From Patescibacteria group bacterium (GTDB lineage Bacteria > Patescibacteriota > Minisyncoccia > UBA6257 > HR35): a stretch of DNA of 32,000 bases. Under the pieces are notes generated by a model. The model ran no database searches and had not been told where the DNA came from. It worked only from the letters and a program-made list of their open reading frames with translations. Each line of letters opens with the position of its first letter. Positions within the stretch are counted from its first letter, which is position 1. The position numbers were made by a program, and so were the translations under genes. The stretch is from positions 210,001 through 242,000 of the forward strand of contig JAUQQN010000001.1 of NCBI GenBank assembly GCA_030549845.1, in the 5' to 3' direction. Shown piece by piece: positions 9,212-32,000 of the stretch.

Positions 9212-9212
9212 G

Positions 9213-17046: not shown

Positions 17047-17102
17047 GAGATTCAAAAATAAAAACTTAATTAAATTTGCTAAAAATATTTATAATAAAAA
17101 TA

Positions 17103-19241
17103 ATGAAAATTTCTGTAATTATACCAGCTTATAATGAAGAAAAGGGTATAGCTAAAACCATTGAAAAAATCCCAAAGGAAGTATTTGAAATTATCGTTGT
17201 TGATAACAACTCAACTGATAAAACAGCTGAGGTTGCAAAAAAATTGGGAGCAAAAGTTATAAGAGAAACAAAACAAGGCTATGGTTATGCGCTTCAGAAA
17301 GGGTTTAAAGAGGCAAAAGGAGATATTATTGTTACCTTAGACGCTGATGCTCAATATCCAGGAGAAAAAATTTTAGAACTTGTGGAATATTTAGAAAAAA
17401 ATAATTTAGATTTTTTAAACTGTTCTCGATTTCCTTTACAAAATAAAAATTCTTTGAGCTTTACAAGAGTTTTAGGGAATAAATTTTTAACAATATTAGC
17501 GAACTTTCTCTTTGGCTTAAAACTAAAAGATTCTCAATCCGGAATGATGGTTTTTAAAAAAGAAATTTTAAAAAAAATAAATCTTGAATCAGGTGATATG
17601 CCTTTATCACAAGAATTAAAAATAAAAACAATTTTGGCTGGATTCAATTTCGATGAAATAAATATTCCTTATTATCCACGCGCGGGCGAGTCAAAACTTT
17701 TTCCAATAAAACATGGAATAAAAAATACTTTTCATCTTCTTAATTTAAAAAATCAATATGGCTGGGGTTTGCTTTCATTTGTGCCTTTAATTTTAATTAT
17801 TTTCCTCTATACTTATTTTTCTAGTTTTAATTTAAACAAACCCTTTATTAATGTAACCTCTGATGTTAATGGTGAAAATGGGCTTGCTGTTTTAAATTGG
17901 CTCAATGTTGGACCTTTAGAAATGAAATTTGGAAAATATGTTGGTGGTTATTTGACTAAAGAAAACTTCAATTTTGAAGAACTAAAAAATAATAAAGAAA
18001 ATACTTTTTATACCCACCATCCTGTTTTTTATCTTTTACCAACTTATTTTCTCTATAAAATTTTTGGAATTTCTGAGCTAACTACAAGAGCTGGGGTATT
18101 TTTAATGTTTGTTATTAGTATAATGTTTTTCTATCTCGCTCTACAAAAAATTTTTAATAATTTAATTTTTCCAACTCTTATTACTTTTATTTTTATAATT
18201 CTTCCTGGAACAATTTATTATGGCACAACCTTTGAACTTGCTGTCTTTGCTCTTCCAACTGCTTTAATTACTTTTTCATTTTTTGTTTTTTATTATTTTT
18301 CTAAGAAAAATGTTTTTCTTTATTTATTGATTCTTTCAATAATTTTAGGAGGTTTAATGTCGTGGTTTTATTTCTTTATGCCAGCAAGCATTTGGTTTTA
18401 TCTTTTATCTGATAAACGAAAAGATTTTATTAAGGAAAGAAAATTATTAATAATTGCTTTACCACTTGTTTCTGTTTTGGTTTTTTCTCTCAATCTTTTA
18501 CATATTTACATTCTTAGAGGTTTTGATGGTTTGATTGATCTAAAAGAAGCTTTCAAATATAGATCAGCAAAATTTCCTCTTCAGTTTTGGCTCAGAGATA
18601 TTTATAGTAGAATGGAGCTTAATTTTAACAAAATCTTTATTTTGCTTGCTGTTTTTGGATTTTTTACTTATTTGTTCAATTATTTCGAAAAATATAAAAT
18701 TTTTCTTCCATTATTTTTAATGCCTGTTTTAAATACTTTTGTTTTCTATCAATGGAGCACTCATCCATTTGGTGTTGTTTTCTTTTTGCCAATTGTTGCT
18801 GTTTTTAGTTTTTTTGTTTTGTTATTTGTTTCAGAGAAAATAAAAAACTATGGGATTTTAATTTCAATATTAATTTTAATTTTTGGCTTTTACTTGTCTT
18901 ATAAAAAACTAGATTTCTTTACAAATAAATTCTTAATTTTAGGAGAAAAAGATATTTTAGCGCTAAAAGAACTAAAAAATCAATTAAAAGATAACGAGAT
19001 TTGTTTAGGCCAAAATCAAATGGGGCTTTATTACGGTGGAATTGTTATGTGGTATTTAAGAAAAAATATTTATTTTTCGCCAAATTGCTTAGAAGATGAA
19101 AGTAAATTGAAAAATTTAAGATTAGCCATAGTTTTTCATCCTCAATTAGGCCAATTTTATTTAGATGAAACTAACAAATTCTTAACCAAAGGATTCAAAT
19201 TAATTGATTGTGCTGATCTTTGGTGCTTTTTACAAAAATGA
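17103..19241 (+). CDS. fusion protein: GT2 polyprenyl-phosphate glycosyltransferase (DPM1/GtrB-like) + polytopic (>=11 TM) GT-C-like membrane domain
   Basis: MKISVIIPAYNEE...VVDNNSTDKT...TLDADAQYP...DSQSGMMVF GT2 core (about 225 aa). This is followed by about 11 hydrophobic helices and a roughly 100-aa C-terminal soluble tail. I prefer ATG 17103 to the track's TTG 17076. TATAAT at 17090-17095 lies 7 nt upstream. Confidence 0.8.
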   Translation: MKISVIIPAYNEEKGIAKTIEKIPKEVFEIIVVDNNSTDKTAEVAKKLGAKVIRETKQGYGYALQKGFKEAKGDIIVTLDADAQYPGEKILELVEYLEKNNLDFLNCSRFPLQNKNSLSFTRVLGNKFLTILANFLFGLKLKDSQSGMMVFKKEILKKINLESGDMPLSQELKIKTILAGFNFDEINIPYYPRAGESKLFPIKHGIKNTFHLLNLKNQYGWGLLSFVPLILIIFLYTYFSSFNLNKPFINVTSDVNGENGLAVLNWLNVGPLEMKFGKYVGGYLTKENFNFEELKNNKENTFYTHHPVFYLLPTYFLYKIFGISELTTRAGVFLMFVISIMFFYLALQKIFNNLIFPTLITFIFIILPGTIYYGTTFELAVFALPTALITFSFFVFYYFSKKNVFLYLLILSIILGGLMSWFYFFMPASIWFYLLSDKRKDFIKERKLLIIALPLVSVLVFSLNLLHIYILRGFDGLIDLKEAFKYRSAKFPLQFWLRDIYSRMELNFNKIFILLAVFGFFTYLFNYFEKYKIFLPLFLMPVLNTFVFYQWSTHPFGVVFFLPIVAVFSFFVLLFVSEKIKNYGILISILILIFGFYLSYKKLDFFTNKFLILGEKDILALKELKNQLKDNEICLGQNQMGLYYGGIVMWYLRKNIYFSPNCLEDESKLKNLRLAIVFHPQLGQFYLDETNKFLTKGFKLIDCADLWCFLQK

Positions 19242-19627
19242 CCTTAAAAGAGGAAATCAAGAAATTTATTTTGTATGGTGTTGGAGGTGGTTTAGCTCTT
19301 ATAATAAACTTATCATTAGCTTATCTATTCACGGAAAAATTAAAAATTTTCTATCTTGGCTCAGCAATTTTAAGTTATATTATTAGCTTAATTTTTAATT
19401 TTCTTTTTCAATCTTTTATAACTTTTAAGACAAGGCGAGAATTGTTTTTACAACGATTTCTCGAATTTTCTATCGTCCAAACAGTAGGCCTTAGTTTATA
19501 TTCAATTTTGGTTTTTATCTTCACCGAAAAACTTAAAATCTACTATCTAATTTCAATAATTTTAAGTAGTGCTTTAGTTTACTTTTCTAACTTTCTTTTA
19601 TCAAGATTTTATGTTTTTAAAAGTTAA
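19238..19627 (+). CDS. GtrA-like small polytopic membrane protein
   Basis: 129 aa with 4 predicted TM helices and a KKFILYGVGGGLALIINL N-terminus typical of the GtrA family. ATGA overlap with the upstream GT2 fusion. I prefer ATG 19238 to TTG 19220. Confidence 0.65.
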   Translation: MTLKEEIKKFILYGVGGGLALIINLSLAYLFTEKLKIFYLGSAILSYIISLIFNFLFQSFITFKTRRELFLQRFLEFSIVQTVGLSLYSILVFIFTEKLKIYYLISIILSSALVYFSNFLLSRFYVFKS

Positions 19628-19628
19628 T

Positions 19629-20732
19629 CTACAATTTTTTAATTTCTTCAAAAAGTCTGGTTATAAAACTCTCTAAAGAAAATTCTTGTGCTCTTTTTTT
19701 AGCGTTTTTTCCAAATAATTTTCTTAATTTTTCATCTTCTAATAGTTTTTTAATAGCTTCATTAAGTTCTTGAGGATTTCTTGGTTTTACTACAAAACCG
19801 GTCTTACCATTAATATTTATCCAACTTGTTCCTGTTCCAAGTTCTGTGGAAATTACTGGTTTTCCAAAAGCCATTGCTTCTAAAAGAACAATCCCAAAAG
19901 TTTCTGATTTGTAAATAGAAGGCAAAACAAAAACATCACAAGCTAAATAATAAGGTCTTAGATCTTTTACCGAAGGAATTATAAAAACTTTACTTTCTAA
20001 ACCATAATTCTTTATCATTATTAAAAGTTTTTCTTTTAATTTTCCTTCACCAATTATAAGAATCTTTGCCTCAAGATCTTTACTGGCTTTAATCAAATAT
20101 TCGAAACCTTTGTAATAGATTAATCTACCAACAGATAAAATTAAAGGGGATCCAAATTTTTTTCTTATTTCTTCAGCTTCTTTTTTAAGACTATCATTTT
20201 CTTTAAAATATTCTAAATCTATTCCAAATGGAATGACAACACATTTTTCTTTAAATCTTTTTAAATAATTTGAATTTTCTATTAAATTTGGATTAGAAAC
20301 AAAAATTTTTTTTGCTTTTTTAAGAGCATATAAATGAAATAATCTAAAGAATACTTCTAATAATTTTTGTCTCACAATATCTGAATGATACCAAATAACT
20401 AAATTTTTATCCCTGGAAAATAAAGAATAGGCAATAAATCCTAGGGGGAAAGGATAATGTAGAAATATTAAATCATAATTTTTTTCTATATTTCTATAGA
20501 AATGTAGAAAATGAAAAGAGAGTGGCATTCCTAAAAATACACCCAAACTTTTTACTCGCATTACTTTCACTCCATTAACTTCTTCAATAACAGTTTTATT
20601 TTTGTCATTACATACTAAAACATCAACTTCTAAATCATCATTTTTATTCAAGCCTTCAGCAATCTCTTGAGCTATCTTTTCAACTCCCCCAATCCAAGGA
20701 TAATATAACTTATTTAACTGAAGGATTTTCAT
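19629..20732 (-). CDS. GT4-family glycosyltransferase
   Basis: GT-B fold hallmarks: N-terminal YPWIGGVEK and C-terminal PSIYKSETFGIVLLEAMAFGKPVIST (E-x7-E). It contains an intragenic copy of the 26-bp palindrome. Confidence 0.85.
   Translation of the reverse strand: MKILQLNKLYYPWIGGVEKIAQEIAEGLNKNDDLEVDVLVCNDKNKTVIEEVNGVKVMRVKSLGVFLGMPLSFHFLHFYRNIEKNYDLIFLHYPFPLGFIAYSLFSRDKNLVIWYHSDIVRQKLLEVFFRLFHLYALKKAKKIFVSNPNLIENSNYLKRFKEKCVVIPFGIDLEYFKENDSLKKEAEEIRKKFGSPLILSVGRLIYYKGFEYLIKASKDLEAKILIIGEGKLKEKLLIMIKNYGLESKVFIIPSVKDLRPYYLACDVFVLPSIYKSETFGIVLLEAMAFGKPVISTELGTGTSWININGKTGFVVKPRNPQELNEAIKKLLEDEKLRKLFGKNAKKRAQEFSLESFITRLFEEIKKL
20484..20509. promoter_or_regulatory. 26-bp composite palindrome, copy D (intragenic)
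   Basis: TTCTA TAT TTCTATAGAA ATG TAGAA. All 20 specified positions are identical to copies A-C. It encodes ...LHFYRNIEKN... of the GT4 protein. Confidence 0.5.
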
Positions 20733-21558
20733 AATAAGCTAAATAATAATCGCCTTTAATTTTTTTTAATTTAAAATTATATTTTTTTAAAAATTTAGAA
20801 ATGAAATTAAAATTTTCAACATTAGTCTTCCAAATTTCTATAATTATTTTAGACCTTAAGAAAAATAATGAATTTGCCATCCCTTTTAAAACTAAATCCT
20901 CAGCTCCTTCAACGTCAATTTTAATACAAGAAATATTTTCTAGTGGTATCTTAAAATTTCGAACAAAGATATCAAATGTAGTAGTATTTACATAAATTTT
21001 ACCAAATTGCTTGTCGAGATTTTTTAAAGAATGAGTTACTGAATATGGAGATAAATAAAAATCTATCATTCCAATTTTATCAGAAAGTGCTAGCTGTAGA
21101 GGAATTATTTTATTGTCTAAATGGTTTAATTGAATATTATCTTTTAAAATGGAAAAGTTTGTTGGTTCTGGCTCGAAGGCATAAATTTTTTCATAAAAAT
21201 CAGAAAATAAAATGGAATATTTCCCGATATGAGCGCCTGCATCTATGAAAATACCTCCTTTATTTTGAAGGAACTTATTTATCCCTTCATCAGCTAATAA
21301 AGTCATAAGGTCAATATCATCTCTAATTTTAAAAATTTTATTTTGTATTTTGATATTAATTTTTTTATATATTCTGCTAATAATATTTTTTCTTAATCGA
21401 AAATAAAAATCAGGATTTAAAAATTGGAGCGGTTTTAAAAATAATTTAGTTAGAGCGCCTAATATTATTTTTATTTTAATTAAGCCTGGGGCCTTAATTT
21501 GGAAAAGAAAAATTTGAGATCTTACAAAATGAAATAAATTCCAAAAAACTTTAGCCAT
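20710..21558 (-). CDS. FkbM-family SAM-dependent methyltransferase
   Basis: GGIFIDAGAHIGKYSILFS...IYAFEPEPTNFSILKDNI...IKIDVEGAE, the characteristic FkbM pattern. Confidence 0.8.
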   Translation of the reverse strand: MAKVFWNLFHFVRSQIFLFQIKAPGLIKIKIILGALTKLFLKPLQFLNPDFYFRLRKNIISRIYKKINIKIQNKIFKIRDDIDLMTLLADEGINKFLQNKGGIFIDAGAHIGKYSILFSDFYEKIYAFEPEPTNFSILKDNIQLNHLDNKIIPLQLALSDKIGMIDFYLSPYSVTHSLKNLDKQFGKIYVNTTTFDIFVRNFKIPLENISCIKIDVEGAEDLVLKGMANSLFFLRSKIIIEIWKTNVENFNFISKFLKKYNFKLKKIKGDYYLAYYENPSVK

Positions 21559-21561
21559 TAA

Positions 21562-22659
21562 TTAGTCTAAATAAATTTTTTTATATTTAACTATCATACT
21601 TTTAATATTATATTTTTCTTGGGTTAATTTAAATCCATTTTCGGCAATTTTTGTTTTTAAATTTTGATCTTTAAGTAATAGAAGGATTTTTTCTTTTAAA
21701 TCTTCTGGATCACCAAAATTAAACAAAATTCCATTTTCTTTATCTTTAATTAACCCTCTAATTCCATGAACAGCTGAAGCAATTACTGGTTTTTTTATCG
21801 CCCAAGCTTCTAAAATAACTAAAGGCAAGCCTTCCCATCGAGTTGAAAGGACGAAAATATCTGAATCTTGCAAAATTTCTTTTACTTCTTTTTTAAAACC
21901 CAAAAATATGATTTTGTTTTTTAATTTTAATCTTTCAACTAAATTTTCTAATTTCTTCATATCTGGGCCATTGCCAACTATAAATAAAATTATATTTTCA
22001 TTTCTAAGCAAATTAATTGATTTAATTAAAGTTTCGACATCTTTTTGATAATGAAGCCGGCAAATAGTTGTTATAATTATTTCATCTTGTAAATTAAAAT
22101 TTCTTCTTAAAAATTCACTTTCTATGTTTTGATATTCTTGTAAATTTATCCCATTTTCTATTAAAAATAATTTATTTTTTTTAATAAGTTTTAATTTATT
22201 AGCTAAATCATAATCATCCTTACTAACACAAATTAGATAATCGACAAATAAATAATTCGTAATTATTTCCCATATCAGAAAAATTAAATTAAAAGGGAAT
22301 TTTTTTCTTATAAAATGAATTCCATGAAGAGTATAAACAAATTTAAAATCTTTCCTTAGAGTTAAAAATAAAACAAGTTTTAAAAAAATACTTGCTCTAG
22401 TACCATGAACATGAATAATTGAAAATTGAAAATCAAAAATTATTTTTTTTAAACTTTTAATTATTTTTAAAAAAGATTTTTTTTTAGGGAAATAAATCTT
22501 GAAATCTTTTAATTCTTCTTCAAATTCTTTTTGGGGTTTTTGGGGTAGGAAAAATATAAAATCAAACTCATTTTTTAATCCTTTAGCAATATTAAGAGCA
22601 ATTTTTTCCCCTCCTGATAATTTTTCGCTACTTAAAATAAAAAGTATACTTTTTTTCAT
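21562..22659 (-). CDS. GT4-family glycosyltransferase
   Basis: SGGEKIALNIAKGL N-terminus and STRWEGLPLVILEAWAIKKPVIAS E-x7-E motif. Confidence 0.85.
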   Translation of the reverse strand: MKKSILFILSSEKLSGGEKIALNIAKGLKNEFDFIFFLPQKPQKEFEEELKDFKIYFPKKKSFLKIIKSLKKIIFDFQFSIIHVHGTRASIFLKLVLFLTLRKDFKFVYTLHGIHFIRKKFPFNLIFLIWEIITNYLFVDYLICVSKDDYDLANKLKLIKKNKLFLIENGINLQEYQNIESEFLRRNFNLQDEIIITTICRLHYQKDVETLIKSINLLRNENIILFIVGNGPDMKKLENLVERLKLKNKIIFLGFKKEVKEILQDSDIFVLSTRWEGLPLVILEAWAIKKPVIASAVHGIRGLIKDKENGILFNFGDPEDLKEKILLLLKDQNLKTKIAENGFKLTQEKYNIKSMIVKYKKIYLD

Positions 22660-23669
22660 AACTTTTTTAAAATTTCAAGGCCTTTTATATAGCTTTCTTT
22701 AAATTTAATTCTATAATAAAAAACTTTCATTCGCCATAAAAATTTTCTTTGAAACATTCTTAATAAATATTCTATTTTTCTGTAAGGTCTATAACCAGTA
22801 AAAGATAAAAGAAGAAAGAAGAAAGAAAAAAAATTAAATCCTATTTTTAATGAATTCAAAAATGCTTTTCTTCCCATGGAAAGATTATTTGACAAACAAT
22901 AGAAATTCCCTAATCTGGAATACCAAATTTTGCGCATAAAAATTGTATACTTAAAATATTTATCTTTATCACTAAAATTTCTTTCTTTTAATTTTTCTTC
23001 TGTAAATTCTTCAATTAAAGAATTTATTCTTTTGACAAAATTAATTGCATTTTTATTTTCCACGTATGAGCCTTGCTTGGGATGTCTTGAATAAAGAGAA
23101 ATTGGCTCTTTTCTAAGCAATGCTTGTTTATTAAAATTATCTTTCTCTTTTAAAAAATACCTATAAAGCATTCCAAACTCATCAACTCCGTTTTGTTCTG
23201 GTTTAAAATACTCTCCTTCCTTCACTACTTTTCTTCTAACAATTAAATTAACTGGCCCACCGTGTTCATAATTGATTATTTTTTTAGTATCTTCATCGAA
23301 AGCCCAGGCAATTGTATATAAAATATCAACTTCTGGATGCTCATCTAAGTATTTTACTCTTTTTTCTAAATTTTCAGGATAAAAAATATCATCTTGATCT
23401 AAAAAAGCTATATATTTACCTTTTGCTTCTTTACAAGCTATTGTTCTTGGAATTGCTGGTCCTCCAGTGTTTTCTTTTAATTCAATTAACTTAATTCTTG
23501 AATCTTTATAAACATATTTTTTAACTATTTCCACTGTTTTATCTTGAGAAGCATCATCTACAATAATCATTTCCCAGTCTTTAAATGTTTGCCATAAAAC
23601 ACTTTTTATCGCTCTCCCAATAAATTTTTCTCCATTATAAGTTGGAGTTATTATTGAAACTTTAGTCAT
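22656..23669 (-). CDS. GT2-family glycosyltransferase
   Basis: VSIITPTYNGEKFIGRAIKSVLWQTFKDWEMIIVDDASQDKT and FLDQDD (DxD). Confidence 0.85.
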   Translation of the reverse strand: MTKVSIITPTYNGEKFIGRAIKSVLWQTFKDWEMIIVDDASQDKTVEIVKKYVYKDSRIKLIELKENTGGPAIPRTIACKEAKGKYIAFLDQDDIFYPENLEKRVKYLDEHPEVDILYTIAWAFDEDTKKIINYEHGGPVNLIVRRKVVKEGEYFKPEQNGVDEFGMLYRYFLKEKDNFNKQALLRKEPISLYSRHPKQGSYVENKNAINFVKRINSLIEEFTEEKLKERNFSDKDKYFKYTIFMRKIWYSRLGNFYCLSNNLSMGRKAFLNSLKIGFNFFSFFFLLLSFTGYRPYRKIEYLLRMFQRKFLWRMKVFYYRIKFKESYIKGLEILKKL

Positions 23670-23671
23670 TT

Positions 23672-24649
23672 CTATTTAAAAAATAATATCGTATATATTT
23701 CTTTAAAAAGTATCCAGATCCTTAAATAAATAATTTTCCAAAACAAAAATCTAAAAAATAGCTGTAATTTTAAAAATTTATAATATAAATTCGAGTGGTT
23801 TATAAAATATGCTTTATTAGATTGTATTTCTAAAATTTTTTCCAAGATAAAATCAACTCTGTTTTTATAAGTATGTTTTTCTAGGGCCAACTTTCTTCCA
23901 TTTGCGGCAATTTTTTCTCTTTCGCTTTCATTCTTTAAATAATATTCAATTTTCTTCCTTAAGTCCTTATAGGTTCCATCATAAACTACTAAATGTTTTT
24001 TGTCCTCAAATAATTCCTCAAAGCCGTTATTTTTTATTTTATTTGTCATAAGCAAAGATCCTGAACACAAAGCTTCAAATACTCTCATGTTTATATCATT
24101 ATTTACATTATAATTAACAACTATTTTTGCTTGAGAATAAATTTTACCTATATCTTTACAATCACCTGAAGAAATAAAAGAATTAGGAAAATCCCTTTTT
24201 AAATTTAATAATAATTTCTTTCTCCACCCCTTACCAGTCTGCCCTATAAAGGCTATATCATATATTTTTTCAAGATTTTGTTTACCATGCCATTCTGGAT
24301 CACAAGCTAAAGGAAGCCAATAAGTATTCTTATTAACTTTTTTAAATTTCTCGACATATTCCTTTTGAGCAACAAAAATAAGATCAAAACTTTTAGCCAT
24401 AACTATATCACACATAAAAGAAGTATGAGAATCAATAATCCATATAATCTTAGGATGATAATTAATATCTAAAATATAGTGACTTCCATCGTCGATAGCT
24501 AAAATAAGGTGTGGTTCAAACTCATATATTTTCCGGAAATCTTTTTTATCCGATAAAATATAAACTTCATTTTTTCTTTCTAAAACTCTTAAAATATATT
24601 GTCCTGTAGTACATAAGTGATTTTTTTTAAAAATAAGAAGTATTTTCAT
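23672..24649 (-). CDS. CgeB-like / Glyco_trans_1_2-type glycosyltransferase-like protein
   Basis: C-terminal half (INMRVFEALCSGSLLMTN...LVVYDG...EREKIAANGRKLALEKHTY) resembles the CgeB-type GT-B C-domain. The N-terminal half has no assignment. Confidence 0.6.
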   Translation of the reverse strand: MKILLIFKKNHLCTTGQYILRVLERKNEVYILSDKKDFRKIYEFEPHLILAIDDGSHYILDINYHPKIIWIIDSHTSFMCDIVMAKSFDLIFVAQKEYVEKFKKVNKNTYWLPLACDPEWHGKQNLEKIYDIAFIGQTGKGWRKKLLLNLKRDFPNSFISSGDCKDIGKIYSQAKIVVNYNVNNDINMRVFEALCSGSLLMTNKIKNNGFEELFEDKKHLVVYDGTYKDLRKKIEYYLKNESEREKIAANGRKLALEKHTYKNRVDFILEKILEIQSNKAYFINHSNLYYKFLKLQLFFRFLFWKIIYLRIWILFKEIYTILFFK

Positions 24650-24803
24650 TTTAAAAGTTTAATATCGGTAACTTTTTCTATCATTTTATTATAATCTCTC
24701 ATTCTAACCAAAAACCATTATATTATAATCATCTTGATAATTTCTCTTGACTTAAAAATCATAATTATTGACGACAAAAGAATTGTCTTTTATTCATGGA
24801 TTA

Positions 24804-25949
24804 TTAAATTAATATCTTTTCAATAATTTTTTTATACTTACTAAGAGATGAATCTATTGAGAATGTATCTAAATTAGCTTTTGCATTTTTTATAAATTTT
24901 TCTCTTATTTCTTTATTTTTTAAAATAATTAAAATCTTTTCCGACATAATTTGTGAATTGCCAACTGGCACTAAAAATCCATTATATCCATCTTTAATTA
25001 TTTCTCTCGGTCCAAAATCACAATCAGTAGCGATAACTGGTAAATCACAAGCAATTGCTTCTATTAAAACAATCGGCATACCTTCATGAAAACTACTTAA
25101 AACAAAAACGTCTGAATTTTTCATATATTTATACGGATTATTTTTATGACCTAATAAAAAGACATTTGATTCCAAACATAATTCTTTGATTTCTGCCTCT
25201 ATCTTTAACCTATCAGGACCTTCACCTACAATTACTAAATAAGCATCAAGATTTTTAATCACAAGAGAAAATGCTTTTAGTAAGGTTATGATATCTTTTT
25301 GGTGTAAATCTAATCTATTTACAGCTAAAATTATTGGCTTTAATTTATTTTTAAAAATTTCTTCATCAATTTCTTCATTACTTAAAAATTTAATTTTTTC
25401 TATATCTATGAAGTTATAGACAAAAGTTGCTTTTTCATTTTTTAAATTAAATAAGTTTTTTATATCTTGTGAAACACCTTCGCTAGCAGTAACTATTTTA
25501 TCTACATTTTTAAAAGATATTTTGGTTAGAAATTTCACAATAAAATTTTGCTTATTAAATAAATATCTTGTATTACCTTGCTCAATAAAAATTATTTTAC
25601 TTTTTGGCGAAAATATTTTACTTATATAGTAAAAATTAGCATTTGAATGAGGACCGCCTCCAAAACAAATTATTAAATCTGGATTTATTTGAAAAATTCT
25701 TATTCCGAATAAAATAAAAAGTTTAAAGTAAAAAATTAAGTTTCTTGGAAAAAAATAAGGAAAAATTTTAATGCTTTCTTCCAAACCTTTTTTAAAATCC
25801 TTAATAGATTCTTTTTTTATTTTTGTATCAATAGTTAAAAGATAAATATCATATTCTTTACTTAAAAAGTTCATTAAAGCTAAAACTATTTTCTTTCTAC
25901 CACCCAAATCTCCCAACCAATTATCGCCTATAAAAAGAATCTTTTTCAT
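24804..25949 (-). CDS. GT4-family glycosyltransferase
   Basis: LSSFHEGMPIVLIEAIACDLPVIATD E-x7-E motif. 381 aa. Confidence 0.85.
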   Translation of the reverse strand: MKKILFIGDNWLGDLGGRKKIVLALMNFLSKEYDIYLLTIDTKIKKESIKDFKKGLEESIKIFPYFFPRNLIFYFKLFILFGIRIFQINPDLIICFGGGPHSNANFYYISKIFSPKSKIIFIEQGNTRYLFNKQNFIVKFLTKISFKNVDKIVTASEGVSQDIKNLFNLKNEKATFVYNFIDIEKIKFLSNEEIDEEIFKNKLKPIILAVNRLDLHQKDIITLLKAFSLVIKNLDAYLVIVGEGPDRLKIEAEIKELCLESNVFLLGHKNNPYKYMKNSDVFVLSSFHEGMPIVLIEAIACDLPVIATDCDFGPREIIKDGYNGFLVPVGNSQIMSEKILIILKNKEIREKFIKNAKANLDTFSIDSSLSKYKKIIEKILI

Positions 25950-25960
25950 TTCATAAAAAT

Positions 25961-26899
25961 TTAAAAAGAGATGTCGAACATTCGTTTTTTAAGTTTAAGT
26001 AAAAAGCTGTAAATGTTTTTCCCTAAAAAGGAAAGTAAAAAATTTCTGTATATGAAAAAATCCATCGGATAAACTTTAATGGCTTTTAAAAAATAAATCC
26101 TTGCTTTTGAAGAATCGCCACAGACCATATATAGAGTACCAATAGTCTTCAATCTATGAGAATAACTTTGAGGGTATTTTTTAAAAAAATTTTCATGTTT
26201 TTTGATCAAGTATAAATTTTCAGAAACTTGATTTTCGTAAGGAAACTGACTAATAGATATATTTCCACCATGAATATAGTACTTTAATAAAATTGATGGC
26301 ACAAAATCTACATTATAATATTGAAGTATTCGAATCCATAAATCTTGATCTGCCATCCTTCTTAAATTTTTATCTATAAGTCCTATTTTATTAAAAATTT
26401 CTCTCCTAATTAAAAGAGCACTTAAAGTAGTAGGAAGTCTTCCTTTTAAAACATTTTCAATTAAATTTTCTTTTAGAGCAGAAAATTTAAATTCTTTTTT
26501 AAAATTTGTATTTTCTTTAATTATTAAAATATCACAACCTACCATCCCAAGATTTGTACTATTTGATTTGTTAAATATATTTATTTGTTCTTCTAATTTT
26601 AGTGGCAACCATTCGTCATCAGAATCTAAAAAAGCTATAAATTCACCTCTTACGACAGATAAACCCTTGTTTAGTGCTGAGGGCCAACCTTGATTTTCTT
26701 GGTAGACATAGACTATTCTAGAATCTTTTTGTTGAAAATCTTCAACAATTTCCTTGGTATTATCAGTAGAACCATCATCTACAATAATTAGTTCAAAATC
26801 TTTATAAGTTTGATTAAGAACAGAATTTATTGCCCGTGGAAGAAGATCTGCTCTATTATAAGTTGTAATAATTACTGAAACAGTTGGGATTTTATTCAT
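25961..26899 (-). CDS. GT2-family glycosyltransferase with C-terminal helical (TPR-like) tail
   Basis: VSVIITTYNRADLLPRAINSVLNQTYKDFELIIVDDGSTDNT and FLDSDDEW. I prefer the ATG at 26899 (MNKIPTVSV...), which removes the overlap with the upstream gene created by the track start at 26959. Confidence 0.85.
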   Translation of the reverse strand: MNKIPTVSVIITTYNRADLLPRAINSVLNQTYKDFELIIVDDGSTDNTKEIVEDFQQKDSRIVYVYQENQGWPSALNKGLSVVRGEFIAFLDSDDEWLPLKLEEQINIFNKSNSTNLGMVGCDILIIKENTNFKKEFKFSALKENLIENVLKGRLPTTLSALLIRREIFNKIGLIDKNLRRMADQDLWIRILQYYNVDFVPSILLKYYIHGGNISISQFPYENQVSENLYLIKKHENFFKKYPQSYSHRLKTIGTLYMVCGDSSKARIYFLKAIKVYPMDFFIYRNFLLSFLGKNIYSFLLKLKKRMFDISF

Positions 26900-26933
26900 G
26901 TTGTTTAAATTCGCTAAATATATTTTATACCAT

Positions 26934-27959
26934 TTAAAATAACTCTGACCAAGTTGCAATTGCTTTTTTTAATTTTTTGAAATAATTTATCTTTATGTTT
27001 AATTTTTCAGCAATTTCTCGATAACAAGTTTTAAAATCGCTTTTAGTCAATTTTATCTCATTTATATATTTCCACAAATATTCATTAATTTTTATCCCTT
27101 TTCTCTCTTTTTCTAAATTTTTATAAGGATCACTTGCTCGATCATGCCAAATAACCGGATAGCCTGAAGTAATTCTATAACCCAGATGATCACAAATTTT
27201 TTTTACGAAAATTCCTGCCCAAATATCATCAAATCTATCAACCCCCCAAGATTTTTCATTTTTATCTTTGCCCATTAACATAAAATACATTGCTGGGGTT
27301 AATTCTCGTTTCCAAGCTAGATTCATACCACACATTGGAAAATATTTTCCTACAGGAATAATTTGTTGAATAAAATAATTTTCAATTTTGGGGAATTTTT
27401 TAAATTTTAATTGAGTAATAGCATCGAAATCTGGAATATTGGCCCATAAACCATGATTTAAAATAATTTTATTTGAATCAATAATATCTTCCACCTGTTT
27501 ATAAGGTAATCCTCTTGGCCTAATATTACCTTTTAATCTGATAGTTGAAACCCATTTTATTTCCTGATATGAATTCTTAAACAATGCATCATAATGAGAT
27601 TTAATAAAATTATTCTTATTAAAGTTTTTAATATAATTCTCTAATGGGTAACAATCATCGTCTAGAGCTATTATCATATCACTTTTCATCTGATATGCTT
27701 TCCAAAAACCATAACTTTTAATTGCTGAAGTTCTTCTTGGAATAATCCAACTATCTTTCCCTAAATCTTTTTCTATATCCTCCCAACTGTAATGAAAGAT
27801 TGGAAATTTTAAATTCTTATTTATTTCAAAAGATTTTATAGGATTATCTTCAATAATAATTAAATTAATTTTATATTTATCAAAAACTTCTTCCCATTCA
27901 CCAATAAATCTTCTTATAGAATTTTCTCTTATTGTTGGTACAACCACTGAAATTTTCAT
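26934..27959 (-). CDS. reversibly-glycosylated-polypeptide (RGP / GT75, UDP-arabinopyranose-mutase family) homologue
   Basis: Full-length collinear motif matches to plant RGPs as I remember them: VPTIRE, ALDDDCYP, RPRGLPY, HGLWANIPDFDAITQL, FPMCGMNLAWKRELTPAMYFMLMG, RFDDIWAGIFVKKICDHL, HDRASDPYKNLEKERKGI. Confidence 0.8.
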   Translation of the reverse strand: MKISVVVPTIRENSIRRFIGEWEEVFDKYKINLIIIEDNPIKSFEINKNLKFPIFHYSWEDIEKDLGKDSWIIPRRTSAIKSYGFWKAYQMKSDMIIALDDDCYPLENYIKNFNKNNFIKSHYDALFKNSYQEIKWVSTIRLKGNIRPRGLPYKQVEDIIDSNKIILNHGLWANIPDFDAITQLKFKKFPKIENYFIQQIIPVGKYFPMCGMNLAWKRELTPAMYFMLMGKDKNEKSWGVDRFDDIWAGIFVKKICDHLGYRITSGYPVIWHDRASDPYKNLEKERKGIKINEYLWKYINEIKLTKSDFKTCYREIAEKLNIKINYFKKLKKAIATWSELF

Positions 27960-27980
27960 CTTTAAAATTATTATTTAAGC

Positions 27981-28463
27981 TTATAAAAATAATAAACCTA
28001 TACCATAATTAAACTTATCAAAAATTATCTCGTTAATTCTGTAGCGATTTTTAAGTACTGACCAAAATTTAGGCACTTCAATATCTTTCCTTAAAGGGTC
28101 TTTATTTATAATATCATGAAAAGCAATAATTCCTCCTTTTCTAACTAAAGGACTATACATTTCGAAATCTTTTTTAACTCCTTCATAAGTATGATCACCA
28201 TCAATAAAAAGAAAATCTAATTGATTACCGCTTAAAATATTTTTAACTTCTTCTAGGGTTTCTTGGTTATGAGAGTCTTTTCTTAAAAGAAGAAGATTTA
28301 TTCTATTAATAGGCCGCTTCGTAGCTTTAATCAAAAAAATTTTCAAACCATAATTTTTAAGAACAAAAATTGATTTTTTAATTAATCTTAACATCTTGAG
28401 GTTTACGTAAATATTCTTAAACCAATAACTCCAATTTTTTCTTTCATTATTAAATTTTATCAT
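27981..28463 (-). CDS. class I SAM-methyltransferase (Methyltransf_24/CmcI-like), C-terminal half only; possibly a decaying gene
   Basis: LDFLFIDGDHTYEGVKKDFEMYSPLVRKGGIIAFHDI is the conserved distal half of the fold. The first 70 or so aa lack the E/D-x-G-x-G-x-G SAM motif I. A 396-bp non-coding stretch lies upstream. Confidence 0.5.
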   Translation of the reverse strand: MIKFNNERKNWSYWFKNIYVNLKMLRLIKKSIFVLKNYGLKIFLIKATKRPINRINLLLLRKDSHNQETLEEVKNILSGNQLDFLFIDGDHTYEGVKKDFEMYSPLVRKGGIIAFHDIINKDPLRKDIEVPKFWSVLKNRYRINEIIFDKFNYGIGLLFL

Positions 28464-28593
28464 AGAAAAATATTGGAGTTTAGCCTTTAAAATAAATAAA
28501 AATCTATTCCTATTTTAAGGATTTCCCATCTATCCATTGAACAATACTATTGTAATATTCTTAATAATATTGGAGTACTAACGCAAAAATATT

Positions 28594-28619
28594 TTCTATA
28601 TTTCTATAGAAAAATAGAA
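28594..28619. promoter_or_regulatory. 26-bp composite palindrome, copy A (upstream of the glycan operon)
   Basis: TTCTA TAT TTCTATAGAA AAA TAGAA, 131 nt upstream of the ATG at 28463, inside the longest intergenic region of the window. Confidence 0.6.
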
Positions 28620-28859
28620 TTAGGTATATCATTTTTTTATTTTTTCAATTCCTTAAGAAAAACAAAGGGTTAACTTATAGCCGAAAATTAATTAAGAATT
28701 TAAGTCTGAATTCAGGAGAATATTTCTTTAAATATTTTTTTATTTTTGTTATCAATCTTATTTTTAATTAAAGACAAAACTACCATATATACTTTAATAT
28801 AAGAATGGTTAATTTAAAAATCTAATTCTCTTTTGTTAATTTATTAAAAAGCTAAAAAT

Positions 28860-29804
28860 TTATTCTAAGTTTTCTTTGAACCATTCAACTGTAATTTTTA
28901 AGCCTTCATCTAAAGATACTTTTGGTATCCAACCTAATTCTTTTTTGGCCTTAGAATAATCTAAGCAACTTCTTCTTTGTTCTCCAGGTTTTCTAGGTCC
29001 ATGAATTTTTTTACAATTTGAACCAGTTAATTGTTTTAACTTTAGAAAAATTGTATTAATTGTTGTTTCTTTACCAGTCCCAATATTATAAACTCCGATC
29101 TTATTCTTCTTTATTGCTAAAATAAAAGCATTAACAACATCATCAACATAAACAAAATCTCTAGTTTGTTTTCCATTACCATTAATTATTGGTTGGTCAC
29201 CTCGAAGCATTTTATCACAAAAAATAGCAATAACGCCAGCTTCCCCTTTTGAGTTTTGTCTTGGCCCATAAACATTAGCTAACCTTAAAGCAATGTAAGG
29301 GATTTTAAAAACTTGAAAATAATAATTTAAATATTTTTCTACAGTCAATTTCTCAATTCCATAAGGGGAAAGAGGAAATTCAGGATAGCTTTCTGGAGTA
29401 GGAATAATTTTAACATCTCCATAAATAGCTCCACCAGTTGAAGCAAAAACAATTTTTGTGATTTTATTGTAATTTTTATAATGATATAATTTAGCGAAAC
29501 TTTCAATAATATTTAATGAACCTAAAATATTTATTTCAGCGCTTTTAATAGGATTTTCAACTGATTTTCTAACATCAATTTGGGCTGCAAGATGATAAAT
29601 TATGTCTGGTTTTTCTTTCTTAAATATTTCAAAAATTTTAGATGAGCAAATATCAATTTTATAAAATCTTGCTTTTTTATTTAAATTTTCTTTTTTACCT
29701 GACGAAAGGTTATCTATAATAATTACTTTGTGCTTTTCCTTAATTAGTCTATCAACTAAATGCGAACCTATAAATCCTGCTCCACCTGTGACTAAAATTC
29801 TCAT
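28860..29804 (-). CDS. GalE-like NAD-dependent nucleotide-sugar 4-epimerase (extended SDR)
   Basis: MRILVTGGAGFIGSHLVDRL, ASTGGAIYGD, and catalytic SPYGIEK (YxxxK). 314 aa. Confidence 0.85.
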   Translation of the reverse strand: MRILVTGGAGFIGSHLVDRLIKEKHKVIIIDNLSSGKKENLNKKARFYKIDICSSKIFEIFKKEKPDIIYHLAAQIDVRKSVENPIKSAEINILGSLNIIESFAKLYHYKNYNKITKIVFASTGGAIYGDVKIIPTPESYPEFPLSPYGIEKLTVEKYLNYYFQVFKIPYIALRLANVYGPRQNSKGEAGVIAIFCDKMLRGDQPIINGNGKQTRDFVYVDDVVNAFILAIKKNKIGVYNIGTGKETTINTIFLKLKQLTGSNCKKIHGPRKPGEQRRSCLDYSKAKKELGWIPKVSLDEGLKITVEWFKENLE

Positions 29805-30793
29805 TTTTGTAAAAGTTTAATCCACTTATTTTTAAATTTTAATGCTTTTTTAAAAGAAAGTTCAATACCTGTTTTTAAATCTATTTTTGGCTCATAGCCT
29901 AAAATATTTTTAATTTTTGATAAATCTGGTTTTCGAAATTCAATATCAGTAAATATATCTCCTCTTTCTTTTGTTGGCAAGTAAATGACATCAATATCTT
30001 CATGTAAAATTTTTAATTTTTTAGCAATTTTAATCATTAAATCTTTTAGCTCATTAATAGAATAGATTTCTTTGTCATTACCAATATTAAAAGTTTCTTT
30101 GCATTTATTTTTTATTAAATACTTTACCCCTAAAATAAATCCTTTAACTGTATCATCAATATAACAAAAAGCTCGTTTTTGATTCCCGTGTCCAAAAATT
30201 GTGATAGGTTTTTTAAAAATAATTGAATATAAAAAACTTGCAAAAACACGCGATGGTTTTTTTAAATCTACACCGAACCCATATGTATTAAATATTCTAA
30301 AAATAATAAAGGGTAAATTTGAAAGTCGTATAACATTTTCTTCTAAACATTTAACATGGGCATAATTCCACCTATTAGAAAATTCAAATACAAAAAAATC
30401 ATCTTCTTTAAAACTTTTCTTCTTAAATATCCCTAACAAACCGTAAACATCAGAGCTTGATGAAAAAATTATAGGTTTATTATATTTCTGAGCAATCTTG
30501 GTTAAAATTAAGGTATTTTTCAAATTCTGAATAACTTTTTTAAAATTTTTTATTGTTATATCAACTCCAACTATGCTTGCAAGATGAATAATTAAATCTA
30601 CATTTTTGACTATATTTTCTAAAATATCCTTATTTATTTCTGAACGATATATTTTAATATTTGAATTCTTTTCCAATAATAAACCAGTTCCAGAAGAAAA
30701 ATCATCTAGAATAAAAACAAAATTATTTTGAGATAATGCATTTGATAGATAACTTCCTATAAATCCTGCCCCTCCGGTTATAAGAATTTTCAT
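29801..30793 (-). CDS. NAD-dependent epimerase/dehydratase family protein (extended SDR, substrate unknown)
   Basis: MKILITGGAGFIGSYL Rossmann start (ATG 30793 preferred to 30835), SSSSDVYG, and YAHVK (YxxxK). ATGA-type overlap with the downstream epimerase. Confidence 0.8.
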   Translation of the reverse strand: MKILITGGAGFIGSYLSNALSQNNFVFILDDFSSGTGLLLEKNSNIKIYRSEINKDILENIVKNVDLIIHLASIVGVDITIKNFKKVIQNLKNTLILTKIAQKYNKPIIFSSSSDVYGLLGIFKKKSFKEDDFFVFEFSNRWNYAHVKCLEENVIRLSNLPFIIFRIFNTYGFGVDLKKPSRVFASFLYSIIFKKPITIFGHGNQKRAFCYIDDTVKGFILGVKYLIKNKCKETFNIGNDKEIYSINELKDLMIKIAKKLKILHEDIDVIYLPTKERGDIFTDIEFRKPDLSKIKNILGYEPKIDLKTGIELSFKKALKFKNKWIKLLQK

Positions 30794-30823
30794 ATTGATA
30801 AATTTTAACTTAAAATTTTTAAA

Positions 30824-30961
30824 ATGAGTTTGCAAAATAGAGATTATTATAAAGAAAAATTAAAAGATATAGAAAGAGAGGAATCAAAAAGGAGCATTTT
30901 TGTTATTGGAGTAGTCCTTTTAATAATTTTAGCCTTACTTTTAAGTTTGATAATATTTTAG
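30824..30961 (+). CDS. possible tail-anchored small membrane protein (45 aa)
   Basis: MSLQNRDYYKEKLKDIEREESKRSIFVIGVVLLIILALLLSLIIF: a charged N-terminal half and one C-terminal TM helix. TAAAAT (30811-30816) lies 7 nt before the ATG, like other operon heads here. It is the only plus-strand candidate between two minus-strand genes and is below the track cutoff. Confidence 0.35.
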   Translation: MSLQNRDYYKEKLKDIEREESKRSIFVIGVVLLIILALLLSLIIF

Positions 30962-30968
30962 ATAAAAA

Positions 30969-31463: not shown

Positions 31464-31559
31464 TGCCTTAATTATAGCAAAATATAACAAAAATTACCAT
31501 AGTGTATTAATAAAATTTTGTTAAGTTTTAAAATTAACTCTTCTTTGTACTATTTTATT

Positions 31560-31585
31560 TTCTAAATTTCTATAGAAAAATAGAA
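31560..31585. promoter_or_regulatory. 26-bp composite palindrome, copy B
   Basis: TTCTA AAT TTCTATAGAA AAA TAGAA, between the ArsR-like gene stop (31624) and the orphan gene start. Confidence 0.6.
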
Positions 31586-31623
31586 ATTAAATTTTGGACA
31601 GTAAATGTTTGACATTTTTTATT

Positions 31624-31981: not shown

Positions 31982-32000
31982 AATTAATTTTAAAAATAGT

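Follow-up and report, generated by a model that had tools for sequence, protein, structure and literature searches.

Why should a palindrome that elsewhere lies between genes also be written into the coding sequence of a glycosyltransferase, where the same bases must specify a peptide? The question is raised by a glycan locus of Patescibacteria (CPR), a group in which, to our knowledge, almost nothing is known of gene regulation because its members are uncultured and their regulators uncharacterised. In the 32,000-nt stretch of DNA analysed here (the window), the palindrome TTTCTA-NN-TTTCTA/TAGAAA-NN-TAGAAA is present in four copies, designated A to D (Table 1), and copy D lies within a GT4 glycosyltransferase gene.

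Table 1. Features of the window that bear on the palindrome and its candidate binding protein
Feature	Position	Strand	Remarks
Convergent GT2 (DPM-synthase-like membrane fusion) and GtrA genes	17076..19627	+	transcribed towards GT4, meeting its 3′ end head-on
GT4 glycosyltransferase gene, 367 aa	19629..20732	-	last gene of the leftward glycan operon
Copy D, 28 bp, TTTCTA-TA-TTTCTA/TAGAAA-TG-TAGAAA	20483..20510		intragenic; GT4 residues 75-84, FLHFYRNIEK
Eight co-directional glycan genes	20710..28463	-	between copy A and GT4
Copy A	28593..28620		intergenic; 129 nt upstream of the first gene of the glycosyltransferase block, 239 nt downstream of an epimerase gene
Gene for a 173-aa protein of unknown function and two NAD-dependent sugar epimerase/dehydratase genes	28860..31490	-	between copies B and A
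Copy B	31559..31586		37 nt downstream of the regulator stop codon, 68 nt upstream of the next ORF
Candidate regulator, 95-aa ArsR/SmtB-type winged-helix protein	31624..31911	-	putative palindrome binder; about 11 kb from copy D
Predicted regulator promoter, TAGAAA, 16 nt, TG-n-TATAAT (extended -10)	31933..31960	-	consensus match only
Copy C	31955..31982		43 nt upstream of the regulator ATG; proximal hexamer coincides with the -35 element of the predicted promoter

The initial annotation had located copy D in the GT4 coding sequence, with 21 bases in common with copy A, and both observations hold. The region 20482-20511 reads TTTTCTATATTTCTATAGAAATGTAGAAAA, and the 21-mer TTTTCTATATTTCTATAGAAA is found exactly at 20482-20502, 28592-28612 and 31954-31974, which places D and A 8110 bp apart; a copy with one mismatch lies at 31558-31578. 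The site had been described as a perfect palindrome at 20484-20509. The site is real, but that span falls inside a full motif of 28 bp, and although the four hexamers are perfect, the spacers TA and TG are not complementary, so that copy D is self-complementary at 26 of 28 positions. When up to three mismatches are allowed, the 21-mer gives 8 strand-hits against 0.12 expected from shuffles, a number attained in none of 100 shuffles. A scan of the window with a weight matrix derived from 39 sites, all outside the window, assigned 43.8 bits to copy B, 43.2 to C, 39.5 to D and 38.1 to A, whereas the next match was below 3 bits and the best shuffle reached -2.8. Copy D, which scores above site A at the operon head, is as good as the other sites, and its origin by chance was rejected.

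Several other sources of the repeated sequence were considered and set aside. Recent copying among A, C and D does not account for their common 21-mer, since TTTCTATATTTCTATAGAAA is the form that the site takes most often in unrelated genomes, and a phage origin was ruled out, no match being found among viral contigs. The palindromes do not behave as REP- or MITE-like repeats, because the hexamers are kept across classes, a cognate ArsR-like gene adjoins them and only one to four exact copies occur per assembly. The RNA scan detected tRNAs only, none adjoining the palindromes, and no rRNA or other known RNA was found beside them. A search of the literature found neither the core sequence in a comparable context nor a paper on an ArsR regulon of CPR bacteria.

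The gene that carries copy D is intact, in that it retains all the invariant residues of 54 homologues, and its ORF matches the Pfam families Glyco_transf_4 (residues 14-174) and Glycos_transf_1 (residues 187-347). The near edge of copy D is 222 nt from the ATG, and the codons TTT CTA CAT TTC TAT AGA AAT ATA GAA A of the site encode most of the helix formed by residues 73-85. Insertion of a mobile mini-palindrome into the gene was ruled out, because the segment is collinear with 53 homologues without change of length. A misannotated start codon, which would have left copy D intergenic, was likewise ruled out, because the N-terminal domain begins at residue 14 and positions invariant in the family lie within residues 1-16.

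The eight genes between copy A and the GT4 gene with copy D (20710-28463) encode Methyltransf_24, RGP-like, GT2, GT4, Glyco_trans_1_2, GT2, GT4 and FkbM methyltransferase proteins. The start of the GT4 gene that carries copy D overlaps the FkbM gene by 23 nt, and its stop codon is 1 nt from that of the convergent GtrA gene, an arrangement of GT2 and GtrA also seen in L016, L018, L063 and L014. The view that copies A and D bracket the glycosyltransferase block is correct insofar as the block is enclosed, but loose, because most of GT4 lies beyond copy D; with about 855 nt remaining between it and the end of the operon, copy D is not a strict boundary. The intergenic region that holds copy A is 396 bp long, and copies B and C, on either side of the regulator gene, are also 396 bp apart. 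Promoter scanning at copies A and B gave matches at the noise level in this DNA of 25% GC, and the -10 and -35 elements recognised by eye were unconvincing.

Evidence that the DNA of copy D, and not only the peptide, is maintained comes from orthologous genes. All 24 specified bases are kept in L035, whose GT4 is 94.6% identical in amino acids to that of the window, and in the orthologue of L013 (76% identity), and 23 of the 24 are kept in that of L065 (65% amino acid and 70.8% nucleotide identity). All the differences in L035 and L013 fall within the four unspecified spacer bases, an outcome whose probability for L013 alone is 4/3276. Against L013, codons at conserved residues are identical in 8 of 8 cases inside the site and at a frequency of 0.626 in the rest of the gene (p about 0.024). 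Among the codons of the site are two rare ones, CTA (7.7% of Leu codons) and TTC (16% of Phe codons); the probability of the codon set given the peptide is about 0.002, and these rare codons are kept over 30% nucleotide divergence. In comparisons between site-bearing genes, the 24 positions rank third to sixth of 358 same-phase windows for conservation; the exception is the pair formed by the window and L035 (24/24, rank 139), which is uninformative at 95.5% nucleotide identity. Comparisons of a site-bearing with a site-less gene place this segment at only 250 to 316 of 358. This segment of GT4 is fast-evolving and is frozen only when the palindrome is present.

The peptide, too, departs from what the family would lead one to expect. 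Among the 120 closest of more than 3000 GT4 homologues, a motif-compatible peptide occurs in only three, and the family consensus is FDFFxLYKKIxK; the peptide around YRNIEK is therefore specific to a lineage and not a feature of the family, as an alignment of homologues proposed with the initial annotation was meant to reveal. The suggestion made there of selection on the DNA withstood both of the tests offered for its refutation: the peptide is not a common inheritance of the family, and the synonymous positions of the site are conserved among the relatives that carry it. Selection on the DNA at copy D is well supported by these sequence comparisons. Copy D is a real site that matches the other sites of the regulator, and its DNA is under constraint. 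It constitutes an unusually clean natural case of one stretch of DNA bearing two codes, one for a protein helix and one for a predicted binding site.

The distribution of the intragenic site among relatives is discontinuous. The site-less orthologues P0002, P0004 and P0005 have seven mismatches each, without intermediates, and the nearest sampled relative of each site-bearing lineage is site-less, with seven mismatches in two cases and a motif-incompatible peptide in the third. In a bootstrapped neighbour-joining tree from which the site region was excluded, each site-bearing lineage is paired with a site-less one: the window and L035 with P0002 (90%), P0003 with P0005 (100%) and P0020 with P0024 (58%). 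A single origin of the intragenic site does not appear to be supported by this neighbour-joining tree of one protein, and multiple losses would account for the pattern as well as gains. Sister lineages in such 'on' and 'off' states reveal the cost and the constraint of dual coding. One of the site-less sister lineages is AP024681.1. In the syntenic locus L016, neither the regulator gene nor the site was found in the 21 kb fetched, and the segment corresponding to copy D reads TTCTTAAATTTTTACAGAAAAATTGCTA; the loci L066-L068, which contain RGP orthologues, are from lineages in which the glycan clusters differ and a GT4 orthologue is absent. The contigs of L013, L035 and L065 are short or truncated.

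The protein that we infer to bind the palindrome is encoded between copies B and C. This ArsR-family gene was missing from the first reading of the sequence. Its product matches HTH_5 of Pfam at 31.1 bits (cut-off 22), and a profile of eight homologues matches the solved structures of HlyU, PagR, ArsR, NolR, CzrA and CadC, with E values of 2e-6 to 1e-4 for HlyU, PagR and NolR; a match to AspA, an ArsR-like centromere protein, is marginal (E about 0.003). The protein contains no Cys and a single His, as do its homologues, and would therefore have neither the α3 nor the α5 metal site; by its sequence, it groups with non-metal members such as HlyU and NolR while remaining within the ArsR/SmtB family. 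Like HlyU, PagR and NolR, which are about 95-100 aa long, it consists of the winged helix only and matches HTH_5. It differs from them in having a second site downstream of its own gene and in its putative targets, which are sugar-nucleotide and glycan enzymes. HlyU, its nearest solved relative, is an activator, which bears on the presumed sign of regulation.

The palindrome is very likely to be the operator of the 95-aa protein, to judge from conserved adjacency: homologues of the regulator (50-79% identity) have a site no more than about 100 nt away in at least 12 further lineages of Patescibacteria (L008, L009, L011, L019, L023, L028, L030, L031, L033, L038, L041 and L062), and those linked to the palindrome do not vary in the predicted recognition helix or wing. 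Usually one site is 25-55 nt upstream of the regulator ATG (the window, L008, L009, L019, L030, L031, L033 and L062) and a second is 40-100 nt past the stop codon. In the window, the predicted regulator promoter is the top-scoring match of the scan, and its -35 element would be supplied by copy C; autoregulation of the protein by way of the palindrome at its promoter is probable. In L008 and L009, the site on the upstream side seems to be positioned shortly before the -35 element instead of on it. In 12-2-12 notation the palindrome is an inverted repeat of the format that is classic for SmtB and CzrA operators. We know of no characterised member of the ArsR/SmtB family with such an operator.

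The exact 26-nt pattern was found in nine stretches from six Patescibacteria genome assemblies and in 41 metagenome stretches, with one to four exact sites per genome assembly, and about 43 distinct sites were counted over about 50 loci. Because these sites were gathered by exact pattern match, the invariance of their hexamers is partly by construction; L013 and L065, which were fetched by protein homology, are free of that bias. Only three sites are intragenic, all at the same codons of orthologous GT4 genes. Among the classified intergenic sites, 8 of 30 (27%) lie between convergent 3′ ends, compared with 18% when every intergenic gap of those loci is counted, and only three of the 30 lie between divergent genes. 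Several lineages have a site where the regulator gene converges with an NTP_transferase gene. In L039, a run of co-directional genes lies between two sites separated by 5.66 kb, and tandem sites are present in L011 (five, about 72 nt apart) and L029 (two). Roles away from promoters are normal for this palindrome. The protein and its site form a candidate regulator-operator pair that extends over several CPR classes and is tied to sugar-nucleotide and surface-glycan genes.

Taken together, copy D is rather likely to be a selected operator of the 31624-31911 protein, acting most probably as a promoter-distal roadblock, as a partner of site A, or as both. A roadblock and a pairing with copy A had each been offered in the initial annotation, and both are viable readings. 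The regulator would occupy four sites in the window, at its own promoter (C), past its own gene (B), at the operon head (A) and in the last gene (D). No promoter-like or terminator-like signal above noise was found next to copy D; a consensus scan of 19400-21700 gave 14 promoter-like matches, compared with 13.1 expected from shuffles, and none adjoins D. Because it has no promoter beside it, copy D most likely acts when bound, as a promoter-distal operator: a full-strength predicted site shortly inside the last gene of a co-directional array. Bound protein may present a physical block to RNA polymerase crossing GT4, which in the sense direction would cut off the last gene and in the antisense direction would halt read-in from the abutting convergent GT2 and GtrA genes, and copy D possibly cooperates with site A. 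Its placement in coding DNA can be explained by the lack of intergenic DNA at the operon tail, where FkbM overlaps GT4 and the stops of GT4 and GtrA abut, and the part of the enzyme that accommodates it is, in the best explanation, a surface helix tolerant of substitution. Site-less relatives share the convergent layout of GT4 and GtrA, and thus a block at the tail is not demanded by the gene arrangement.

Operators that act as roadblocks in transcribed DNA include the cre sites of CcpA within genes, and such operators were reportedly described for PurR in E. coli purB by He and Zalkin in 1992 and for CodY in B. subtilis by Belitsky and Sonenshein in 2011, papers that PMC9934606 lists among its references. 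Like these, copy D lies far downstream of the promoter within coding DNA and has no promoter beside it, and by analogy a steric block to the elongating polymerase would be expected. It differs from them in lying in the ninth gene, 8.1 kb from the nearest upstream operator, and not in the first gene, and in that the protein proposed to bind it is an uncharacterised patescibacterial member of the ArsR type. In most of the cases described, neither the conservation of codons nor an on/off distribution among sister lineages is as clear as it is here.

Copy D might instead serve purely as a looping partner, doing nothing alone, with two dimers per 28-bp site bridging it to copy A or to copies B and C, and the loop stabilising repression of the whole glycan operon. 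The auxiliary operators lac O2 and gal OI are intragenic, and in lacZ and galE, as in GT4, an additional operator copy is contained in a structural gene of the operon under control, and one coding sequence serves both protein and operator. The four hexamers would provide room for two dimers, all four are intact in copy D, which has the sequence of a primary operator (21 consecutive bases in common with A and C), the regulator gene lies between two sites 374-484 bp apart, a classic looping distance, in at least nine lineages, and the pair of sites in L039 encloses one gene block. However, the distance to the primary operator is 0.1-0.4 kb for lac O2 and gal OI, whose repressors bridge DNA, whereas the 8.1 kb between D and A far exceeds the few hundred bp at which auxiliary operators are known to help much. 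We know of no bridging of DNA by dimers of the ArsR family, and the intergenic region beside copy A could host a partner without constraining a protein. Looping as the sole function is rather unlikely.

A bolder extension of the roadblock, which we regard as doubtful, is that the 95-aa protein and its palindrome form a programmable boundary of transcription units in bacteria with reduced genomes. Units would be marked by sites at their heads and tails, namely on either side of the regulator gene, between genes that converge and at the two ends of operons, and bound protein would halt polymerase from both directions, substituting for intrinsic terminators; at a tail without intergenic DNA, such as that of GT4 and GtrA, the boundary would be encoded within a protein-coding helix.

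It is improbable that the protein is architectural and that the palindromes, with copy D as one of several along the AT-rich glycan locus, are nucleation sites for spreading or boundaries that insulate transcription units. Such a role would agree with the frequency of sites between convergent rather than divergent genes and their lack of enrichment at promoters, with the tandem sites of L011 and L029, and with a regulator that has no obvious ligand or metal site. As with the centromere palindromes of parS and AspA, several conserved copies, one of them intragenic, lie within about 12 kb, and the candidate binder weakly resembles AspA, which spreads along DNA. That match is marginal, however, and HlyU, PagR and NolR match better; the neighbourhood has no ParA, ParB or other partition genes, the sites go with a regulator gene and with metabolic operons in numerous contexts that are unrelated, and so few of them per assembly would suit a nucleoid protein less well than a regulon that is small and local.

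Copy D could also be inert, having arisen once in an ancestral GT4 and persisted by constraint on codons or protein without regulatory consequence. For most of the intragenic transcription-factor sites studied in E. coli, those of PhoB among them, no effect on transcription could be detected (PMC9934606), and the simple codon-identity test against L013 is, taken by itself, only modestly significant. Yet the inert PhoB sites are explicitly not conserved (PMC9934606), whereas in GT4 a segment that is among the fastest-evolving of the gene without the site is among the slowest with it. Substitutions hit the spacers and spare the specified bases, rare codons are kept despite the divergence, and the origin of a 24/24 match by drift is very improbable, as is underlined by the absence from the 32 kb of any comparable match beyond A to D. 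We consider an inert site quite improbable; since most intragenic sites in model bacteria seem to be both inert and unconserved, copy D, being conserved, offers a suitable case in which to ask what sites of this kind can do.

A signal at the RNA level, with a hairpin in the GT4 transcript that would make ribosomes pause, undergo cleavage or cause attenuation of transcription, is very improbable. A hairpin is predicted (-7.6 kcal/mol sense, -11.9 kcal/mol antisense), but an intrinsic terminator or attenuator was rejected because the stem, at -6 to -12 kcal/mol with only two G-C pairs, is not G+C-rich and has no U-tract 3′ of it on either strand. Changes in the spacers are uncompensated, the spacers being mispaired in the window, L035, L013 and L065, and the exact hexamers that are conserved are common to intergenic sites beside a gene for a DNA-binding protein in distant lineages.

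The initial annotation had also suggested that A and D are recombination sites of an invertible or excisable glycan cassette, as their near-identity on either side of the glycosyltransferase block might imply, while noting that the sites have no asymmetric core and that the window has no recombinase gene; these reservations proved apt, since the TA/TA centre is symmetric and a Pfam scan of the ORFs of at least 80 aa in the window found no recombinase, integrase or transposase domain, and the suggestion, which is extremely improbable, can be dropped, because elsewhere single palindromes are scattered over many unrelated intergenic locations and stand beside the ArsR-like gene, not at cassette ends, contig L001 runs across copy D without a junction, and exchange between A and D would destroy GT4.

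Copy D of the 28-bp palindrome lies within positions 20482-20511, which read TTTTCTATATTTCTATAGAAATGTAGAAAA, in the last gene of the glycan array, with copy A at the array head. The palindrome consists of four hexamers, TTTCTA-NN-TTTCTA followed by TAGAAA-NN-TAGAAA, and occurs four times in the window, which is bacterial (G+C about 26%), codes for DnaE, EF-Ts, S2, a release factor, AlaRS and a giant lamin-tail-domain protein, and has Patescibacteria (CPR) assemblies as relatives. Eight strand-hits were observed at three or fewer mismatches, compared with 0.12 expected from shuffles. A weight matrix built solely from the sites of other genomes scored B, C, D and A at 43.8, 43.2, 39.5 and 38.1 bits, and detected no further site above 3 bits in the 32-kb window (shuffle maximum -2.8). 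The exact 21-mer pointed out in the initial annotation is common to D, A and C.

Coordinates of features in the window and in fetched loci (L handles)
Feature	Source	Position	Strand	Remark
Copy A	window	28593-28620		palindrome
Copy B	window	31559-31586		palindrome
Copy C	window	31955-31982		palindrome
Copy D	window	20483-20510		palindrome
GT4 gene	window	19629-20732	minus	complete; N-terminal domain match
Regulator ORF	window	31624-31911	minus	95 aa; ArsR-family HTH_5 match above Pfam cut-off; flanked by C and B
Top promoter-like match	window	31960-31933	minus	TAGAAA-16-TGnTATAAT
Glycan operon gene 2	window	26934-27959	minus	PF03214, E 1.7e-45
Release-factor ORF	window	9447-10199	plus	250 aa
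Ribosomal protein L31	window	9211-9417		68 aa
Lamin-tail (LTD) protein	window	12480-16241	minus	1253 aa
Bracketed regulator gene	L033	11905-13329		example
Palindrome + AGTACTTTTTAAAAAATACCAAACGATATTCTAACAT element	L052	6486-6560		example
Inverted AGTACTTTTTAAAAAATACCAAACGATATTCTAACAT-type elements	L039	801-828, 6463-6490		around 5.6-kb co-directional gene run
Five tandem palindromes	L011	361-675		about 72 nt apart
Two palindromes	L029	11132-11233		74 nt apart
Variant palindrome	L005	2316-2343
Variant palindrome	L012	6685-6712
Variant palindrome	L004	149-176
Variant palindrome	L067	20491-20518
Variant palindrome	L068	7531-7558
Aminotran_4 locus	L062	307-826		regulator present
Aminotran_4 locus	L066	5528-5555		no regulator nearby

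That D is truly intragenic is borne out by the GT4 ORF, which is complete, has a domain match from residue 14 and retains every residue invariant among 54 homologues. In the reading frame D is TTT CTA CAT TTC TAT AGA AAT ATA GAA A, and the resulting peptide, FLHFYRNIEK (residues 75-84), falls in helix 73-85, right ahead of strand 88-93 (AlphaFold model, mean pLDDT 90.9). The segment is collinear with homologues, which rules out D as an insertion into GT4. The GT4 start is overlapped by FkbM (23 nt), and the stops of GT4 (19629) and of the convergent GtrA gene (19627) are a single base apart, leaving the operon tail without intergenic DNA. The convergent GtrA and GT4 ends overlap in loci L016, L018, L014 and L015. 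There is no room for a terminator between these ends, and in all of these lineages transcripts from either side must run into the opposite gene.

The central claim of the initial annotation, that D is selected as DNA, survived every test run. Sites avoid genes: among about 43 distinct sites over about 50 loci, only three are in a long ORF, all at identical codon positions in orthologous GT4 genes. The GT4 family consensus at this segment is FDFFxLYKKIxK, and of the 120 closest homologues just three have a motif-compatible peptide, each together with the DNA motif, so that the D peptide is not a family feature. Orthologues L013 (homologue P0003; 76% amino acid identity to the window GT4) and L065 (P0020; 65% amino acid and 70.8% nucleotide identity), which were retrieved through protein homology without reference to the motif, keep 24/24 and 23/24 specified bases, and L035 (94.6% amino acid identity), obtained by motif scan, keeps 24/24. 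L013 differs from the window D in both spacers, with His to Thr and Asn to Lys replacements, and the probability that three differences would all hit the four free positions is 4/3276; L065 differs in a single hexamer base (AGA to AGC) and both spacers, and L035 in one synonymous spacer change. Where residues are conserved, codon identity is 8/8 within the site versus 0.626 in the rest of the gene. D uses CTA, which makes up 7.7% of Leu codons, and TTC, which makes up 16% of Phe codons; with the peptide fixed, the full codon set has a probability of about 0.002. When site-bearing genes are compared with one another, the 24 specified positions come 3rd to 6th among 358 same-phase windows; the exception is the window/L035 pair, whose 95.5% nucleotide identity makes it uninformative. 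When site-bearing genes are compared with site-less orthologues, the segment falls to ranks 250 to 316 of 358, and comparisons within the site-less group give mostly similar ranks. The segment is thus frozen only when it carries the site. Because the spacers do not covary and are mispaired in all four lineages, the object of constraint is the hexamer sequence, as in protein-DNA recognition, rather than an RNA hairpin.

Presence of the site is all or nothing, since the site-less orthologues P0002, P0004 and P0005 have exactly seven mismatches each and intermediates were not found among them. In a bootstrapped neighbor-joining tree of GT4 from which the site region was removed, the window and L035 pair with site-less P0002 (90% support), P0003 with site-less P0005 (100%) and P0020 with site-less P0024 (58%); each site-bearer having a site-less sister, the intragenic site has been repeatedly lost, or gained. 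In the complete-genome relative L016 (AP024681.1), operon synteny is kept, and the regulator gene and site are both absent from the 21 kb fetched. Site-less relatives also share the convergent layout, which therefore does not force a site. Loci reached via orthologues of the reversibly glycosylated polypeptide (RGP) represent lineages with different clusters.

From conserved adjacency, we conclude that the palindrome is the putative operator of the 95-aa ArsR-type protein. A scan of public collections with TTCTANNTTTCTATAGAAANNTAGAA yielded 9 stretches in 6 genome assemblies, four of them explicitly labeled as CPR (Paceibacter, Moraniibacteriota, Minisyncoccia and a 'Saccharibacteria' bin), and 41 stretches in metagenomes; none was found in viral contigs, and no literature on the motif was found. 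Regulator homologues (50-79% identity) adjoin the palindrome in L008, L009, L011, L019, L023, L028, L030, L031, L033, L038, L041 and L062, recurrently with one site 25-55 nt 5′ of the start codon and another 40-100 nt past the stop codon (374-484 bp between the two). Their putative recognition helix and wing are invariant, which fits the invariance of the hexamers, itself inflated in a site collection assembled through exact match. The family profile matches the solved structures of HlyU, PagR, NolR, CzrA and CadC, and marginally AspA. With zero cysteine and a single histidine, the regulator is, judging from its sequence, a new, uncharacterized member of ArsR/SmtB, of the kind without a metal site. 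The usual operator format of ArsR/SmtB proteins is a 12-2-12 inverted repeat, and the palindrome can be written in the same way; among the structures, the best match is HlyU, an activator. The proximal hexamer of C forms part of the top promoter-like match of the 28.3-32 kb scan and is predicted to serve the regulator's own promoter as its -35 element. The upstream site of L008 and L009 seems to fall just 5′ of the -35 element, not on it. Because assemblies have just 1-4 exact sites each, the four window sites are probably most of a small local regulon. Its probable members are the regulator itself, the glycosyltransferase operon, and two sugar epimerases together with a 173-aa protein of unknown function.

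No promoter-like or terminator-like signal above noise adjoins D and its hairpin is weak and lacks a U-tract, so that D would be a promoter-less operator. Sites are not restricted to promoters: of the 30 intergenic sites that were classified, 8 separate convergent 3′ ends and only 3 separate divergent genes, against a background of 36/199 and 51/199 of all intergenic gaps. In several lineages the site past the regulator gene separates it from a convergent NTP_transferase gene, and in L039 two sites lie 5.66 kb apart around a run of co-directional genes. Both observations show routine use of the protein-site pair away from promoters, frequently with one site at the head and one at the tail of a unit, which makes a promoter-less D less odd. 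On balance, D probably functions as a bound operator that would sterically block polymerase crossing GT4. In the sense direction, such a block would curtail the last gene; it may also, or instead, halt antisense read-in from the convergent GT2/GtrA genes. Cooperation of D with A is a further possibility. Roadblock repression by intragenic operators is established in examples referenced in PMC9934606, namely PurR at purB and CodY. D may be likened to such a roadblock or to an auxiliary operator, and agrees with roadblock sites in what could be tested here.

D could instead be purely a looping partner; however, at 8.1 kb from A it differs from lac O2/gal OI-type sites, which act in proximity. 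An architectural or boundary role for the palindromes is another alternative. Most intragenic PhoB sites in E. coli are inert, but these are unconserved (PMC9934606), whereas D is conserved, and an inert relic is accordingly disfavored. Also disfavored are an RNA hairpin at D, given its weak stem, missing U-tract and mispaired spacers in four lineages, and recombination sites; the evidence against these three readings is direct. Roadblock action at D would not be categorically new biology, although the evidence for dual coding is unusually clean, and the locus opens a testable regulon in a lineage in which regulation is essentially unknown.

In L008, L019, L023, L028, L030, L031 and L033, a site lies on either side of the regulator gene. 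The downstream neighbor of this gene is a convergent 288-aa sugar-nucleotidyl transferase gene (Pfam NTP_transferase), so that the second site has a 3′ end on each side, a position at which a promoter is not expected. An Aminotran_4 (class IV aminotransferase) gene just 3′ of the palindrome in L062 and L066 is a possible further regulon member. The tandem palindromes of L011, which separate the regulator gene from the next one, and those of L029 suggest arrays for cooperative or graded binding. Variant palindromes with the same 6-2-6/6-2-6 architecture and altered hexamers or core, found also in the upstream flanks of L037 and L056, include ATTCTATCTTTCTATAGAAAGATAGAAT in 35-39% GC genomes, a TTTCTTAAGAAA-core version and ATTCTAACATTCTATAGAATGTTAGAAT, and may be operators of paralogous regulators. 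In one metagenome contig group (L020, L022, L036, L037, L039, L043, L044, L045, L050, L052, L056 and L058), one flank of a perfect palindrome is joined directly to a conserved non-coding element (AGTACTTTTTAAAAAATACCAAACGATATTCTAACAT...; about 45 nt) without an Rfam match. The nearest ORF is 200-500 nt away from this element, and in some cases a tRNA gene follows about 330 nt downstream.

Gene 2 of the glycan operon is a member of the 'reversibly glycosylated polypeptide' family; UDP-arabinopyranose mutase also falls in this family, whose best-known members come from plants. Homologues of gene 2 number over 1700, chiefly in Patescibacteria metagenome data. The PCRF match of the release factor begins at profile position 98, so that the usual N-terminal domain is lacking, and the 280-nt gap upstream codes for ribosomal protein L31, which is below the ORF list threshold. 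The secreted-looking LTD protein has two lamin-tail domains and an acidic low-complexity linker, and a related protein is encoded near the GT4/GtrA genes in L016.
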